This document shows positions 8,479 through 58,351 of a stretch of 64,000 nucleotides of DNA, in pieces (within the stretch, counting starts at the first letter, position 1; each line of letters opens with the position of its first letter). This DNA comes from Pyrinomonadaceae bacterium (lineage in GTDB: Bacteria > Acidobacteriota > Blastocatellia > Pyrinomonadales > Pyrinomonadaceae), in assembly GCA_043768465.1 (NCBI GenBank), contig JAYVKL010000045.1, positions 342 through 64,341 on the forward strand, in the 5' to 3' direction. A program made the translations under genes and the position numbers. A model generated the notes under the pieces. That model was given only the letters and a program-made list of their open reading frames with translations. It did no database searches and had not been told where the DNA came from.

Positions 8479-9345
8479 CTATTGTTTCGGCTTAATTTTT
8501 ATCTCGAAAAGTTTTTTCCAGTTTTTGCCGGTCACGAAAATTCTGTCGCGTTCCGCATCATACGCGATGCCGTTCAGAGTGTTTTCCGGGTCGCGTTCCA
8601 CGTCGTCCGGCGAGATGCCGCCCAAATCAATCCAGCCGAGCAGTTTGCCGGAGGTCGGATCAATCCGCGCGATGTGATTCGGTTTGCCGATTTCTTCGGA
8701 ATGCCAGACGTTCGCCCAAATCTCGCCTTTGATGTATTCGAGTTCATTGATTTTCATCAGAGGTTTGCCGTTTTCATTATTGACGACGATGGTGCGAATC
8801 GTCTTGAAAGTCTCCGGTTCGACGACGCGGATAATGTGCGTTCCATCGCTCATAATCGGATTTTTGCCGTCGTTCGTCAAACCCCAGCCTTCGCCCGCGT
8901 AGCCGAAATTACCGAGCAGTTTGAAAGTCGCCGCATCGTAAATAAAACCGTTGCCTTCCTGCCACGTCATCTGATAAATTTTGCCGTTTAAAACGGTTAT
9001 GCCTTCGCCGAAACTGCTTTTCGCCAGCCCGACTTTCTGCACGACTTTGCCGGTTTCGAGTTCGACTTTTCGCAAATCGGATTTGCCTTCCTGCCCGGTG
9101 CTTTCATACAAAAAACCGTTGTAGAAAAACAATCCTTCGGTGAACGCCGTCGGGTCGTGTTTGAAAGTATTGACGATTTCAAAAGTGTAAACCGGCACTT
9201 TATTATCAGCCGTTTGATTATTCGAGTTCACGGTTTTATTGACGCTGGCGATGTTGCCGGCGTTGACGTTCGTTCGATTTGGCGGCGTTCCGGTTTTGCA
9301 GGAAACAGCGAAAACGGTAAATATAATCAGTAAAAAAAAACGCAT
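8479..9345 (-). CDS. Glutaminyl-peptide cyclotransferase (beta-propeller type), secreted
   Basis: 288 aa with a signal peptide. FTEGLFFYNGFLYESTGQEGKSDLRKVELETGK is the typical bacterial/plant QC signature. Confidence 0.8.
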   Translation of the reverse strand: MRFFLLIIFTVFAVSCKTGTPPNRTNVNAGNIASVNKTVNSNNQTADNKVPVYTFEIVNTFKHDPTAFTEGLFFYNGFLYESTGQEGKSDLRKVELETGKVVQKVGLAKSSFGEGITVLNGKIYQMTWQEGNGFIYDAATFKLLGNFGYAGEGWGLTNDGKNPIMSDGTHIIRVVEPETFKTIRTIVVNNENGKPLMKINELEYIKGEIWANVWHSEEIGKPNHIARIDPTSGKLLGWIDLGGISPDDVERDPENTLNGIAYDAERDRIFVTGKNWKKLFEIKIKPKQ

Positions 9346-9352
9346 ATTGTTT

Positions 9353-9400
9353 TGAGTGGAGAGTCGAGATTTTCAATTCCGTATCTCGACTCTCGACTAT
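9353..9400. repeat. Short hairpin with GAGAGTC/GACTCTC units
   Basis: gagtggagagtcgagat-loop-atctcgactctcgact. The related tract ctctcgactctcgactctcgc sits inside the GT39 CDS at 31404-31429. Confidence 0.55.
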
Positions 9401-10722
9401 TTTCCCAGAGCTTGATCAATCGCCTGCCGAAAACCGGCGGGCGAAAAACGGCGCACTTTCACGCCGTTAACGTAAATCGTCGGCGTTCCCGAAATGCCGA
9501 GCGTTTTGCCGTCGGCAATGTCTTTTTCGATGTCGGGAGCGAACTTTTTGCTTTTCAAATCGGCGGCAAATTGTTTGACGTTCAACCCGACTTGCGCCGC
9601 GTATTCGATCAGGGACGTTTCATTGAGTTTAGCTTGATTGGCGTATAAAATCTCGGTATATTCAAAAAATTTTCCCTGCGCGTGCGCCGCATTCGCCGCG
9701 AGCGCGGCGGCATAGGCGTTTTCGTGAATCTGCACGAGGGGAAAATCGCGCACGACGAAACGGATTTTGTCGCCGTAGCTTTTCAAAACTTCCTGCAAGA
9801 CCGGATGCGCCGCCGAACACGCCGAACACTGAAAATCGGAAAACATCACGACCGTGACGGGCGCGTTTGCTTTCCCGCGCGACGGCTGATTTTCCGTGGA
9901 AACGATTTGGACAATCGGCGAAATCTGTTTGATTTTGAACTGCGCGGCGTATTTTTTAAACAATCTTTGGCGCAGAGTTGATTCGAGCGCGAGCCGTTCC
10001 GCGTCGGAATAATCTTTCAATTTATCGGTGATTTCGCGGGCGATGTAATCGCTCGCGTCAATATTTTGGGCTTTTGCTTCGACGGCGGCGAGATTGGAAT
10101 AAACGATTTGCTCCAAAGATTCGCGGGCATCGTCGTAAACGTCGGCTTCGAGTTCGGAGAGCGCGATTTTATTTTTCGCTTCGTAGTTTTCGACGGAAAT
10201 CTGCCGGTCGCCGACGGTTGCCAAAACTTCAAACCGGCTCAAGTTCGCCGCGTTGACATCTTTGCCGAGCGCGGCTTTAAACTTTGTTTTCAGACTTGCA
10301 ATCAAAACCGCATAAGCCTTCTGCTGCGAATCGCGCTGCAAAAAAGCGACGATTTGCGGTTTGACCTGTTCCAAAGTCTGGCTCCCGACGGCGGCGCGAT
10401 TCGCGTCGTAAACCGCTTGAACTTCCTTTCCAGACGGCGCGGAAACTTTGTTTTTAATTTCCGTTTCAATCAATTTTTCGACGGTAATTTTCCGCGCCGC
10501 CGATTCTTTTTCAAACAAAACATCGACGATTTGCTGTTCGAGCAAAACCTGCCGCGTGTTTTTCAAGGTCGCCGGAAGATTTTCCAGTTCGCCGCGAACT
10601 TCCGGCGCAAGGTCCTGGGCGGTGAAATTTCGCCCGTTCGCCGTCGCCAGAACTTCGTCGGACTTTTGGGCGAAAACAACTCCGCAAAATAGCAATAAGA
10701 AGACCGACAAAAACAATTTCAT
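9397..10722 (-). CDS. Secreted thioredoxin-fold DsbA-family protein with SurA-N-like domain
   Basis: 441 aa with a signal peptide. CxxC in VTVVMFSDFQCSACSAAH, followed by a DsbA-like C-terminus (GISGTPTIYVNG). Confidence 0.7.
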   Translation of the reverse strand: MKLFLSVFLLLFCGVVFAQKSDEVLATANGRNFTAQDLAPEVRGELENLPATLKNTRQVLLEQQIVDVLFEKESAARKITVEKLIETEIKNKVSAPSGKEVQAVYDANRAAVGSQTLEQVKPQIVAFLQRDSQQKAYAVLIASLKTKFKAALGKDVNAANLSRFEVLATVGDRQISVENYEAKNKIALSELEADVYDDARESLEQIVYSNLAAVEAKAQNIDASDYIAREITDKLKDYSDAERLALESTLRQRLFKKYAAQFKIKQISPIVQIVSTENQPSRGKANAPVTVVMFSDFQCSACSAAHPVLQEVLKSYGDKIRFVVRDFPLVQIHENAYAAALAANAAHAQGKFFEYTEILYANQAKLNETSLIEYAAQVGLNVKQFAADLKSKKFAPDIEKDIADGKTLGISGTPTIYVNGVKVRRFSPAGFRQAIDQALGK

Positions 10723-30236: not shown

Positions 30237-31988
30237 ATGACGGAAAATCCAAAATCCAAAATCCAAAATCCAGGATCCAGAATCCTTTGGCTGCTGTTCG
30301 CGTTGCTGATTGTCTTCGTCTATTTTTTCGGCTTGACGCTTCCGCTGTTGGGTCCCGACGAACCGCGTTACGCGCAGGTCGCCCGCGAAATGTATTTGCG
30401 CGGCGATTGGATTACGCCGACGCTCGGCGGTTTCGACTGGTTTGAAAAACCCGCGCTGCTTTACTGGCTCGAAATCGCGTCGTATAAAATCTTCGGCGTT
30501 TCGGAGTTTGCGGCGCGTTTCGGTTCGGCGGTTTTCGGGTTGGGAACGATTGCCTGTTTGTGGATTTTGGGGAAATCGGTTTCAGGTTTCAGGTTTCAGG
30601 TTTCAGGTGAAAAGATAGAAATCCTAAAGCAAACGTCTGAAATTCAGAAACCAGAAACCAGAGACCTGGAACCAGAAACCAGAAACCTGAAACCTGAAAC
30701 CAGAAACCTGAAACCTGAAACCTCCGTTTTTGCCAATTGGCTGGCTTTGATCGCCGCGTCATCAATTGGTTTGATCGTCTTTTCACGCGGCGCGAGTTTC
30801 GATATTATCCTCACTTTTCCGATTACCGCTGCGCTGGTTTGCTATTTTCTTTTTGAATCTTTGCTCCAAAAGCATTATTTTTGCGCCGTCCCGAATTCAA
30901 TTGTTCTTTCGAAATCTACGGCGGCAAACCTGATCGCTGCCGCGCCGCCGATTGCCTGGGCGAGCTTGTTTCTCGCCGGTTTTTACTTTTTTATCGGTTT
31001 CGCATTGCTTGCCAAAGGCCTGATCGGGTTGATTTTCCCGCTTACCATCGTGTTTTTTTATCACCTTCTGAAGTTTGAACTGCTGCCGGGCAAAGTATTT
31101 CTCATCAGTCTGATTTGGGGAACGATTATCAGTTTGCTCGTCGCGTCAATCTGGTATCTGCCGATGTATCGGGCGCACGGCTGGAAGTTCGTGGACGAGT
31201 TTTTTATCCAGCATCAATTTCAGCGTTTCACGTCCGACAAATATCAGCATCAGCAGCCGTTCTGGTTTTTCTTCGTCGTTCTGCCGCTGATGACTTTGCC
31301 GTGGCTGCCGTTTTTTCTGGCTTCGATCTGGAATTTTTTCAAGGTTCAAGGTTCAAGGTTTAAAGTTCAAAGTTCAAGATTTAATGTTCAAGGTTCAAAT
31401 AATCTCTCGACTCTCGACTCTCGCCTCGCTCCTTTCGCCTTCGCGTGGCTCGCCGTGCCGCTCGTTTTTTTCTCGCTTTCCGGCTCGAAACTTCCCGGCT
31501 ATATTTTGCCGGCACTGCCCGGCGCAATCGTTTTAACGGCGATTTATGTGGCTGATTTTGTGCGGAAATCGCGGACGCGAACGCGTGTTTTGCAGATTGC
31601 GGCAGCTTCGACTTTTCTATTCGTCTTCGTCGGTCTGCAATTTTTCGCGGCGGATTATACAAATTACGAAACCGTCAAAAATATGATTGCGGCGGCGGAT
31701 GCCAAAGGCTTTGCCGATGCCGAATTCGTCAGTCTCTACACGGTTTCGCACAATCTCGAATTCTACGCCGCCGGCAGATTAGAACGCGACGCGGACGGCA
31801 AACTCAAACGCTACGACGATTTTTCCGTGTTGATAAAAGCGGTCAAAACGGCAGGCGACCAACGAATTTTAGTCGTCGTGCCGCAAGCCAATGTGCCGAA
31901 TCTGCAAAAGGAAAACGACTTGGCGGACATCGAAACGATTGCCGAAAACGGCGAATCAGCGATTATCTTGATTAAGCCGAAACGGTAA
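30237..31988 (+). CDS. Glycosyltransferase family 39 (ArnT/PMT-like) membrane protein
   Basis: GPDEPRYAQVAREMYLRGDWITP signature and more than 10 TM helices. Carries three heptamer-tract-encoded segments (N-terminus, 30577-30725 and 31340-31429). Confidence 0.8.
   Translation: MTENPKSKIQNPGSRILWLLFALLIVFVYFFGLTLPLLGPDEPRYAQVAREMYLRGDWITPTLGGFDWFEKPALLYWLEIASYKIFGVSEFAARFGSAVFGLGTIACLWILGKSVSGFRFQVSGEKIEILKQTSEIQKPETRDLEPETRNLKPETRNLKPETSVFANWLALIAASSIGLIVFSRGASFDIILTFPITAALVCYFLFESLLQKHYFCAVPNSIVLSKSTAANLIAAAPPIAWASLFLAGFYFFIGFALLAKGLIGLIFPLTIVFFYHLLKFELLPGKVFLISLIWGTIISLLVASIWYLPMYRAHGWKFVDEFFIQHQFQRFTSDKYQHQQPFWFFFVVLPLMTLPWLPFFLASIWNFFKVQGSRFKVQSSRFNVQGSNNLSTLDSRLAPFAFAWLAVPLVFFSLSGSKLPGYILPALPGAIVLTAIYVADFVRKSRTRTRVLQIAAASTFLFVFVGLQFFAADYTNYETVKNMIAAADAKGFADAEFVSLYTVSHNLEFYAAGRLERDADGKLKRYDDFSVLIKAVKTAGDQRILVVVPQANVPNLQKENDLADIETIAENGESAIILIKPKR
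30577..30725. repeat. Heptamer-arm hairpin (GGTTTCA / TGAAACC) lying in frame inside the GT39 CDS
   Basis: cggtttcaggtttcaggtttcaggtttcaggtg ... cagaaaccagaaaccagagacctggaaccagaaaccagaaacctgaaacctgaaaccagaaacctgaaacctgaaacc. It translates as [11 protein letters not shown]...KPETRDLEPETRNLKPETRNLKPET. Confidence 0.9.
31340..31429. repeat. Tandem GGTTCAA-type heptamers plus CTCTCGA units, in frame inside the GT39 CDS
   Basis: caaggttcaaggttcaaggtttaaagttcaaagttcaagatttaatgttcaaggttcaaat...ctctcgactctcgactctcgc. It translates as KVQGSRFKVQSSRFNVQGSNNLSTLDSRL. Confidence 0.85.
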
Positions 31989-55415: not shown

Positions 55416-55486
55416 AGCCACAGAGATCACAGGGATCACCGAGAAAAATTTATAAACTCTCTGTGATCTCTGTGATCTCTGTGGCT
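55416..55486. repeat. Hairpin with ~9-nt tandem units (CACAGAGAT / ATCTCTGTG)
   Basis: agccacagagatcacagggatcaccgag - loop - ctctgtgatctctgtgatctctgtggct. ~29 bp with 2 mismatches, in the rsfS-rlmH spacer. Confidence 0.8.
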
Positions 55487-55489
55487 GAT

Positions 55490-55918
55490 TTAAATTTCTT
55501 CGGGAATTTCGACTTTTTTCGCGTCGCGCCAGAGTCGTTCCAGATCGTAAAATTCACGCGCTTTCTGCTCAAAGATATGAACGATAAAATCGCCGTAATC
55601 GAGCAAAATCCATTCGCCCGCCGTGTAGCCTTCGACGCGAATGACACGCGAATTCAATTTTTCTCTGAGTTTTTCGGTAATCTCGTCGGAGATTGCCTGC
55701 ACCTGCCGCATATTAGAGCCGCTGGCGATGATAAAAAATTCCGTAAAGCTCGCCACTTCGCGCAAATCAATGGCGGTAATCTCAAACGCCTTTTTCTCGT
55801 TCGCGCTGGTGATCGCCAGTTTTACCGCGTCGTCCAAGTCAGCGAACGGTGTCACGGCGGCGGCGATTTCGATGGTTTCCGTCGCGTGCTGTAAAGATTT
55901 TTCCTGTATTGCTTCCAT
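55490..55918 (-). CDS. rsfS: Ribosome silencing factor
   Basis: RsfS/iojap pattern [32 protein letters not shown] ... [14 protein letters not shown]. Confidence 0.9.
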
Positions 55919-55923
55919 AATTT

Positions 55924-55985
55924 CAGTTGTCAGTCATCAGTCGTCAGTCATTTTGTAATCAATGATAACTGATGACTGATAACCG
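55924..55985. repeat. Imperfect hairpin with CAGTCAT heptamers
   Basis: cagttgtcagtcatcagtcgtcagtcatt-ttgtaatc-aatgataactgatgactgataaccg. The same unit forms the hairpin inside the riboswitch at 24661-24733. Confidence 0.7.
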
Positions 55986-55986
55986 T

Positions 55987-56691
55987 CTAAATGTAAAGTT
56001 CGTATTTTTCGACGTATTTTGCAACCTCGTCCGGCACGAGTTCGCGCCAATCTGTTTGATTATCACGAATTTTCTGTCGAATCTCCGTTGCCGAAACGTC
56101 GAGATTGACGGCATCGGTGAGGTAAATTTTAGTTTCTCGCTTCTCGTTTCTCGTTTCTCGCTTTCCATCTGAAACCTGAAACCTGAAACCTGAAACCTGT
56201 CCGCGTAAATCAACGATTCGGGCGCGAATCGCTTCCGTCACCTGTGAAAATTCGATTTCGTAATCGGGGCGCGTGACGACGATGATATTGGTCTGCGTTA
56301 AAACCGTTTCCCACTCGCGCCAGGTCGTGATTTCCGTCCAGGAGTCCGCGCCGATGACAAAGTAGATTTCCGCGTCGGGCAAATTATTTACCAATTTCGC
56401 CTGCGTTTCAAACGTAAAAGGCTTTTCGGGAGCGTCGAGTTCGATGGTGGAAATTTCAATTTTAGCTTCGTTCGCCGTCGCCAGACAAAGCATCGCGTAT
56501 CGGTGAAACGCCGAAGTCGGCTGGCGGTCTTTTTTGTGCGGCGCGTGAAAAGCCGGAATGAAAACGAATCGGTCGAGCGCGAATAATTCGATTGTTTTTC
56601 GCGCAATCGCCAAATGTCCGTTGTGAAGCGGATCAAACGAGCCGCCGTAAAACGCGATGCGCCCATGTTTCACCGATTTGTTAAAATTCAT
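55987..56691 (-). CDS. nadD: Nicotinate-nucleotide adenylyltransferase
   Basis: [15 protein letters not shown] (HxGH) and the C-terminal DVSATEIR (ISST-like). Start placed at ATG 56691, with GTG 56673 also possible. Contains a ~25-aa heptamer-encoded insert. Confidence 0.9.
56133..56199. repeat. Two adjacent heptamer tracts (TTTCTCG x4, CTGAAAC x4) in frame inside nadD
   Basis: tttctcgcttctcgtttctcgtttctcgctttcc + atctgaaacctgaaacctgaaacctgaaacctg. Translated on the minus strand as [25 protein letters not shown]. The second tract matches the right arm of the hairpin at 58279-58351. Confidence 0.9.
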
Positions 56692-57727: not shown

Positions 57728-57773
57728 TGATATTTTCGATTTTCGATTGACTATTGGTGAATTTCAGATTCGA

Positions 57774-57852
57774 GGTTTTGAGCTCAAACTTCAGTTTGCT
57801 TTCTGCCAGCGAAGCGAAGCAGCAAAACACGCTCAAATGTGAACTTAGAACG
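57774..57852 (+). repeat. Rep-A element copy G
   Basis: ggttttgagctca-AACTTCAGTTTG-..CTGCCAGCGAAGCGAAGCAGC..-CACGCTCAAATGTG-aacttagaacg, in the rpmA-obg spacer. Confidence 0.75.
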
Positions 57853-57970
57853 GTTGACAAAATAAAAACGCGCCCGCCAAACTTTTGAAGATTAGCGAGT
57901 CGCGCCGTTTGATTATGCGAATCTTGCGAAGAATAATTCGCTTGACCGCCAACCCAAATTCGCAAATTAT

Positions 57971-58267: not shown

Positions 58268-58278
58268 AATTCTGTTCA

Positions 58279-58351
58279 GGTTTCAGGTTTCAGGTTTCAG
58301 GTTTCAGATTGCATTTTCCAATCTGAAACCTGAAACCTGAAACCTGAAACC
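58279..58351. repeat. 73-nt perfect hairpin: 32-bp stem of GGTTTCA heptamers, 9-nt loop
   Basis: 58279-58310 is ggtttcaggtttcaggtttcaggtttcagatt. 58320-58351 is its exact reverse complement. Loop is gcattttcc. It occupies most of the 96-nt rplU-rpmA spacer. Confidence 0.95.

Follow-up and report, generated by a model that had tools for sequence, protein, structure and literature searches.

The window analysed here is a stretch of 64,000 nt from a soil bacterium of the Pyrinomonadaceae (contig JAYVKL010000045.1, positions 342 to 64,341 of the forward strand), and the gene of interest is nadD, which encodes the NAD-synthesis enzyme nicotinate-nucleotide adenylyltransferase and carries an insert built from 7-nt tandem repeats. 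The genome under study (G000) consists of 369 contigs with a total of 4.5 Mb and a G+C content of 49.5%, and it was compared with the genomes G001-G024. The nadD coding sequence is located on the window's minus strand at 55987..56691 and encodes 234 amino acids from an ATG at 56691; the frame is open from a TTG further upstream (56718) as well, and the gene overlaps the end of obg. The open reading frame (ORF) list and its translation, profile searches, sequence matches in the PDB and structure prediction all identify the product as NadD. It matches NCBIfam NF000840 (1.5e-52, 178 bits against a cutoff of 150) and TIGR00482 (165 bits against a cutoff of 112), and it is similar in sequence to solved NadD chains. 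The AlphaFold2 (AF2) model, with a predicted local distance difference test score (pLDDT) of 82.9, features the Rossmann-like NadD fold, and its top 50 Foldseek matches are all NadD proteins with target-normalised TM scores of 0.74-0.90, of which the best solved structures score 0.82-0.90. The (H/T)xGH motif is found at residues 16-26 and is invariant or nearly so in an alignment of 30 NadD orthologues, which includes 24 genus genomes and same-class outgroups. The ISSTxxR-type nucleotidyltransferase motif is intact and reads VSATEIR at residues 199-205 (56077..56097, minus strand), and in the same alignment Ser200, Thr202, Ile204 and Arg205 are invariant or nearly so. No second good nadD match was found in G000, which indicates a single-copy gene.

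The repeats lie in a hypervariable protein loop of 25 residues (164-188; 56128..56202, minus strand) between the conserved IVDLR and IYLTD, and thus just upstream of the ISST-type motif of this essential gene, where the initial annotation had placed them. On the plus strand, positions 56133-56160 consist of the four units TTTCTCG, CTTCTCG, TTTCTCG and TTTCTCG, positions 56161-56166 read CTTTCC, and positions 56167-56197 read ATCTGAAACCTGAAACCTGAAACCTGAAACC (31 nt). Both heptamer tracts were found again when the sequence was re-read, both are reported by Tandem Repeats Finder (TRF), and the minus-strand ORF runs through them without interruption. The first tract had been given as four exact copies; it does contain four units, one of which has a T>C mismatch. 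A sequencing error or a gene boundary was considered as the source of the insert and is ruled out by the continuous ORF, by identical DNA in seven independent assemblies and by a C-terminal part that is in frame in 24 congeners. Read in the sense direction, the insert consists of (GGTTTCA)x4.4, ATGGAAA and GC(GAGAAAC)x4, in frame, for a total of 25 residues. The left arm, CAG(GTTTCAG)x4 or (GGTTTCA)x4.4, is located at 56169..56199 and encodes 10 residues (plus an Asp), the inter-arm loop ATGGAAA is located at 56162..56168, and the right arm at 56132..56161 encodes 11 residues and consists of GC followed by the units GAGAAAC, GAGAAAC, GAGAAGC and GAGAAAC, which derive from the complementary CTGAAAC arm with its TGA stop lost.

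The RNA fold of the insert features four in-register 5-bp GUUUC/GAAAC helices with a folding energy of -24.8 kcal/mol, compared to -17.2 for shuffles (z -3.1), and a separate shuffle test gave a z of -4.6. The right arm pairs with the left arm in register at 5 of 7 positions. The unit GAGAAAC has no other array among the exact arrays of G000, and it is one substitution away from CAGAAAC, which forms the right arm opposite GGTTTCA in a GT39-type gene and in a GlnE-like gene of the same genome. The GT39-type hairpin is located in the window at 30578..30722 on the plus strand and is the nearest parallel within the genome; it is translated as well, with a 10-residue left-arm peptide followed by ...KPETRNLKPET. 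Many NadD homologues at 67-80% identity carry the same combination of left-arm peptide and ...KPETRNLKPET, the latter being the plain translation of a stop-free right arm. The initial annotation had read the insert as two different tracts, one of them a half element. The in-register pairing, the single change from CAGAAAC and the KPETRNLKPET peptide of the orthologues show instead that both tracts belong to a single degenerate heptamer hairpin, of which they are the arms. How large the insert is depends on the reference chosen. It amounts to ~26 residues against mycobacterial NadD, where ~34 query residues stand opposite 8, so that the earlier figure of about 25 residues is fair against minimal NadD proteins; it amounts to 8-12 residues against same-class relatives with loops of 13-17 residues, and to 14 residues (2 x 7) when the shortest loops within the genus are taken as reference.

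Comparison with other genomes shows that the nadD insert was inherited vertically and is not newly landed. In a NadD tree with the loop masked, G000, G023 and G014 form a clade with support of 100/99. Outside the insert, nadD of G000 and G023 is 84.4% identical, with 70.8% identity at third codon positions. The left arms of the two genes are identical at 31 of 31 positions (a chance of ~0.005 if sites are independent), and the inter-arm loop and right arm together are identical at 25 of 37, the right-arm units of G023 being AAGAAAC, AAGAAAC, TTGAAAC and TTAAAGC. The second locus at issue is the spacer between rplU and rpmA, which features a hairpin at 58275..58351 composed of (GGTTTCA)x4.7, a 17-nt loop and (TGAAACC)x4 (reported by TRF; RNA fold -59.6 kcal/mol, z -13). 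G023 too features a GGTTTCA hairpin there, whose loop differs and whose right arm is degenerate. It follows that the nadD and the rplU-rpmA sites were both already filled when the two species diverged. Each of the 24 genus genomes has a repeat-built hypervariable loop between IVDLR and IYITD, and the unit families differ by lineage (GGTTTCA/GGATTCA, AAAGACC/AAAATCC, GAATTAC, CAGCGGT and ACGATTC). The loops of same-class outgroups are non-repetitive, with 13-17 residues. The insert is older than the divergence of G000 and G023 and probably older than much of the genus, and the proposal that such an array can land inside an essential gene is contradicted by the filled sites in G023 and in every genus member.

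The orthologue alignment and the mapping on a structural model, two checks suggested in the initial annotation, both turned out as anticipated. In the AF2 model residues 162-188 form a coil between the strands at 159-161 and 189-192, with a pLDDT below 50 at residues 172-183, and the remainder of the model is confident. The loop is thus predicted to be a disordered surface coil. Its sequence is not conserved at all among the 30 orthologues, and it would most likely have no specific role in catalysis.

The length of the loop is quantised. Among 120 NadD homologues surveyed, 74 have a loop of 11, 18, 25 or 32 residues. When the homologues were collapsed to 74 loop families, 43 of these had a ladder length, compared to an expected 1/7 (binomial p ~3e-18, uncorrected for phylogeny), and the same length classes are common to unrelated unit families. 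Two metagenomic sequences, P0002 and P0003, are the closest relatives of the G000 gene. In the closest relative identity is 95.4% outside the insert and 57% over the inter-arm loop plus right arm, and its left arm is longer by exactly 21 nt. The right arm of the closest relatives, (CCCGAAC)x4, has the same length as in G000, with 3 of 7 positions changed in all four units. A comparison within one strain group covered seven assemblies from different samples, with contigs that encode an identical protein. The nadD insert is identical in the seven, with no length variant among them. A hairpin of CAGTCAT/TGATAAC-type units reported by TRF in the nadD-rsfS spacer (55923..55983), 40 nt downstream of nadD, served as a local control, and it is longer by 7 nt (+GATGACC) in two of the seven assemblies and has one C/T single-nucleotide polymorphism. 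Taken together, the 7-nt variant in the spacer, the 21-nt indel and the ladder show that units are actively being gained and lost locally. The same data show that in nadD a frame filter lets only three-unit steps through and that variant units sweep through an arm, so that divergence in the arrays proceeds at about nine times the rate of their flanks. In the mechanism proposed here, heptamer units would be gained and lost in place by replication slippage, selection on the essential gene would pass only three-unit changes (21 nt, 7 residues) and stop-free variants, and variant units would spread through an arm by concerted evolution. Slippage as the molecular mechanism in nadD is suggested by these length changes. 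Two neighbouring spacers were compared with related contigs (L047-L049) from gene coordinates only, and the coordinates imply an extra 9 nt in a 9-mer hairpin (CACAGAGAT) of contig L048 in the rsfS-rlmH spacer (~55440-55490) and an extra 115 nt in contig L047 in the rpmA-obg spacer (57728-57970).

Translation places a second constraint on the arms. Since 7 and 3 have no common factor, an array of at least three units is read in all three phases. Within 21 nt, tandem TGAAACC offers a TGA to each of the three phases, so a (TGAAACC)n arm always meets an in-frame stop and a perfect right arm cannot be translated. Such an arm would persist inside a gene only once its T has been replaced, and right-arm units with this T replaced are found as GAGAAAC in nadD, as CAGAAAC elsewhere in G000, as AAGAAAC in G023 and as CCGAACC in the closest relatives. 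In the coaBC gene of G000, two right-arm units in which a TGA would fall in frame read CAA and CGA, giving DLKPEIQNLKPETRNLKPQ. Of the 99 coding arrays of G000, 93 have a sense-strand unit without a stop codon. Adjacent array pairs are complementary at 6 or more of 7 positions in 8 of 21 coding cases, compared to 74 of 90 non-coding cases. The order of the substitutions in the nadD right arm is inferred. Outside coding DNA, the rplM-rpsI spacer of G000 (contig C193:6880-7100) features a concerted T>A change in which every right-arm unit is CAGAAAx, compared to CTGAAAC in G023; this change affects the whole arm and has no matching change in the left arm.

Arrays of this type are abundant throughout the genome. 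Exact arrays of at least three units number 193 with period 7, 14 with period 6 and 2 with period 8, and TRF gives 465 period-7 rows, which correspond to ~460 heptamer arrays. The exact heptamer arrays comprise 45 canonical units. GGTTTCA is the commonest of these and accounts for 51 of the 193 exact arrays, and nearly all of its arrays have a TGAAACC-type arm no more than 100 nt further on. In the window, the 21-nt GGTTTCA pattern has 14 matches compared to 0 in shuffles. One of these is the array within the GT39 gene, which the initial annotation had also recorded and which is located at 30578-30608; the description of the array as dispersed was correct, and the count of three loci was far too low. 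Most arrays are intergenic and form inverted pairs, and roughly one in five (~99 of 460) is located inside a coding-like ORF. The coding hosts include LeuRS, ArgRS, CoaBC, TruB, a chorismate-binding enzyme and an aspartate-oxidase-like flavoprotein, and the left-arm peptide of nadD recurs in LeuRS, ArgRS, CoaBC, TruB and the GT39 protein. With so many enzymes hosting translated arrays, NadD is not a special case.

Several of these hosts show further features. The leuS ORF has two translated heptamer regions, one at contig C6:6644-6761 and one ~1.1 kb downstream in the same ORF; one has a 19-residue stretch and, further on, NQQPATSN, and the other is ESRESRVENEESKSQIPNPKSQ. Inserts of the QVSGFRFQ type are also found in ArgRS, CoaBC and TruB. 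Unlike units can be neighbours in one gene, as with GTTTCAG and CTCGCCT in the chorismate-binding enzyme and GAATTAC and GAAACCRG in two genes. Units of GAATTAC followed within 5-10 nt by GAAACC(A/G)G are located at C12:30892-30967 and C44:18898-18972 of G000 and in the NadD loops of G019 and G003 (L006 and L017). This pair thus occurs in three different genes, with the peptide ELRITNYELR...KPETRNQK, and is commoner than the rarity of GAATTAC suggests. At C139:5900-6120 a (CCTGAAA)x5-6 arm runs straight into a start codon (CCTGAAAGATGAGC), and, in contrast to most arrays, it matches G023 at every base across more than 100 nt.

The reading preferred here, which is considered quite probable, is that NadD inherited a whole translated hairpin in a permissive disordered loop, and that the hairpin changes by local heptamer slippage filtered for frame and for stop codons. 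The initial annotation had favoured mobility or templated copying of arms over purely local slippage, citing the dispersal of the array and the match between the nadD insert and one arm of the rplU-rpmA hairpin. The match is present, as 31 nt of the nadD left arm recur in the right arm at 58321-58351, 2.1 kb away, and some coding arrays do adjoin clearly unrelated units, as would be expected if one arm had been transposed or copied into nadD beside an unrelated second array. However, GGTTTCA is the commonest unit of the genome, and the 31-nt identity therefore has no special meaning and is expected from any two arrays of this unit. The identity extends only 3 nt (ATC) past the repeat, and a GAT/GATT end variant is found at 8 of the 51 arrays. 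The second tract is complementary in register and homologous to the right arms of orthologues, and both loci are occupied in G023. The flanks of 38 arrays were analysed for information content, and neither a target-site motif nor element ends were found, only a unit periodicity that decays upstream; there is no target duplication, and the hairpin loops and flanks differ at all 51 GGTTTCA loci. Transposition of a half element is accordingly regarded as extremely improbable. A role for the element itself is scarcely more credible, whether as an mRNA hairpin that regulates nadD translation or decay, as a phase-variation switch or as a loop peptide with a species-specific function. The nadD site is filled with repeats in 24 of 24 genus genomes, and the hairpin potential is significant in G000, G023, P0002 and P0003 (z -2.5 to -6.5). 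G006 also folds better than its shuffles, but most genus members have single-arm arrays with a fold z near 0, and a conserved RNA structure in the nadD mRNA was rejected because no genome beyond that group and G006 exceeds the shuffles. The loop sequence is unconserved, and many unrelated enzymes contain these same peptides. Additionally, a slip of one unit would truncate the single-copy essential NadD before the ISST motif. The insert does not behave as a contingency locus, as it is identical in the seven assemblies and only in-frame 21-nt classes are found among homologues of this single-copy gene.

The rival with the most in its favour, although still an unlikely one, is a templated or sequence-directed homogenisation in which arrays, the one in nadD included, are repeatedly remodelled to approach a species-specific master unit. 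This could proceed by ectopic conversion from one dispersed array to another, by template switching from arm to arm in quasi-palindromes, or through a factor that favours certain heptamers, and the perfect left arm of nadD would then be owed to copying and not to local slippage alone. The dominance of one unit in 51 of 193 exact arrays is consistent with such a process, as are the species differences. Three tandem GGTTTCA units have 76 matches in G000, 15 in G023 and 0-2 in most congeners, and the reversed control ACTTTGG x3 is the dominant unit of four others, with 61 in G012, 55 in G004, 27 in G001 and 25 in G003, and has none in G000. Ten GGTTTCA sites of G023 and G014 were looked up in G000, in this one direction, and eight have a related hairpin, two have a hairpin of unrelated units and none is empty. 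The two swapped sites are GGTTTCA against CGAGAGT, at 9259-9489 of the window (C45:9600-9830), and GGTTTCA against GATAATG, upstream of dnaJ at C48:2400-2680, and at both the flanks align up to the hairpin. In C44 the left arm perfectly complements the right arm in G000 and has a different unit in G023, and the nadD left arm is identical at 31 of 31 positions between these genomes, against 84.4% in the rest of the gene. A process of this kind acting across the genus, rewriting arrays in place and also within nadD, leuS, argS and coaBC, is given a small but real chance; if true, hairpin sites would be conserved while their sequence is swapped wholesale. On the other side, the GAGAAAC arm was not copied from elsewhere, since the genome has no other array of this unit. 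The 7-residue ladder keeps its length classes across unrelated units, which foreign arrays of arbitrary length would not. There are no shared flanks to support ectopic recombination, and convergent selection or a mutational bias for few units could yield the same dominance. Room is left for a templated component at the level of the whole genome, but landing in nadD has no support. Of the earlier choice between mobility, templated copying and slippage, mobility is dropped, slippage is supported by the 7-residue steps and by the 21-nt and 7-nt indels, and genome-wide templating keeps a small probability.

Several observations weigh against the interpretation as local slippage of an inherited hairpin. 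Dominant heptamer units differ between species, and two of the ten orthologous sites carry unrelated hairpin units. The left arm of nadD is perfect in G000 and G023 and degenerate in the closer relatives P0002 and P0003, a pattern that pure drift and slippage do not predict. GAGAAAC is also identical at 5 of 7 positions to CGAGAGT, the second commonest unit in the genome, so the assignment of the right arm rests mainly on the orthologues. The account of the stop codons is also incomplete. Among 11 coding pairs in which both arms could be stop-free, 8 match at only 3-4 of 7 positions, and the T>A right-arm variants are present in the non-coding rplM-rpsI spacer too. Stop purging as the sole cause of arm divergence is thus only partly upheld.

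The nadD insert belongs with the known heptanucleotide repeats. In the summary given by Rehm et al. 2015 (PMC4692102), short tandemly repeated repetitive (STRR) sequences are described from heterocystous cyanobacteria (Calothrix/Nostoc), and a general excess of heptameric simple sequence repeats (SSRs) is said to have been noted in 2007. The arrays in G000 share the 7-nt unit, the short length (typically 3-8 units), the hundreds of dispersed copies, the species-specific units and the mostly intergenic location, with under-representation in coding sequence. They also show an excess of period 7 and copy numbers that change by whole units between strains and relatives. They differ in their host, which belongs to the Pyrinomonadaceae of the Acidobacteriota and not to the cyanobacteria, and the literature search found no paper linking heptanucleotide repeats to Acidobacteria. 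Unlike the heptanucleotide SSRs described there, about one fifth of the arrays are translated, including in essential enzymes, and one protein loop can be followed over more than 100 homologues with a 7-residue ladder. In Xanthomonas campestris and axonopodis, GGGAATC repeats are arranged as convergent inverted pairs, with 70-75 such pairs in each genome (Rehm et al. 2015, PMC4692102). The arrays described here resemble them in forming inverted stem-loop pairs between genes, with about four units preferred and fewer on the coding strand, and the 74 of 90 non-coding adjacent pairs that are complementary at 6 or more positions are convergent inverted pairs of this type. The Xanthomonas unit is G-rich and forms G-quadruplexes in vitro; however, GGTTTCA, ACTCTCG, AAATGGT and the other common units of G000 have no GGG, and without a G-tract of three the G-quadruplex rationale does not apply. 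Many units (45 canonical) coexist in G000, and translated, stop-purged arms are undescribed in Xanthomonas.

Variation of tandem repeats within coding sequence has been described for SSRs under frame constraint (Lin and Kussell 2012, as cited in PMC4692102). As summarised there, selection removes lengths that break the frame and repeats survive in permissive disordered regions, as in NadD. The heptamer, however, is not a multiple of three, which results in a quantum of three units and reading in three phases, in a peptide with a period of 7 residues, and in an absolute ban on units with a stop codon in any phase. Repetitive extragenic palindromes (REP), REPINs and MITEs (miniature inverted-repeat transposable elements) are likewise dispersed, form hairpins and are found mostly between genes. 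The arrays in G000 differ from them in having no conserved sequence, fixed ends or target signature and in a copy number and loop that vary per locus, and there is no presence/absence variation at the ten orthologous sites or among the 24 nadD genes.

The nadD insert is a natural example of a non-triplet microsatellite that builds and remodels a protein loop. With more than 100 homologues, at least five unit families and one ladder, the NadD loop may serve as a molecular ruler of repeat dynamics in an uncultured genus. For annotation, such inserts should be taken neither as assembly errors nor as gene boundaries. The essential enzymes NadD, LeuRS, ArgRS and CoaBC tolerate heptamer inserts, and these genomes make it testable why species favour their own heptamers and why hairpin sites persist while their units are swapped.

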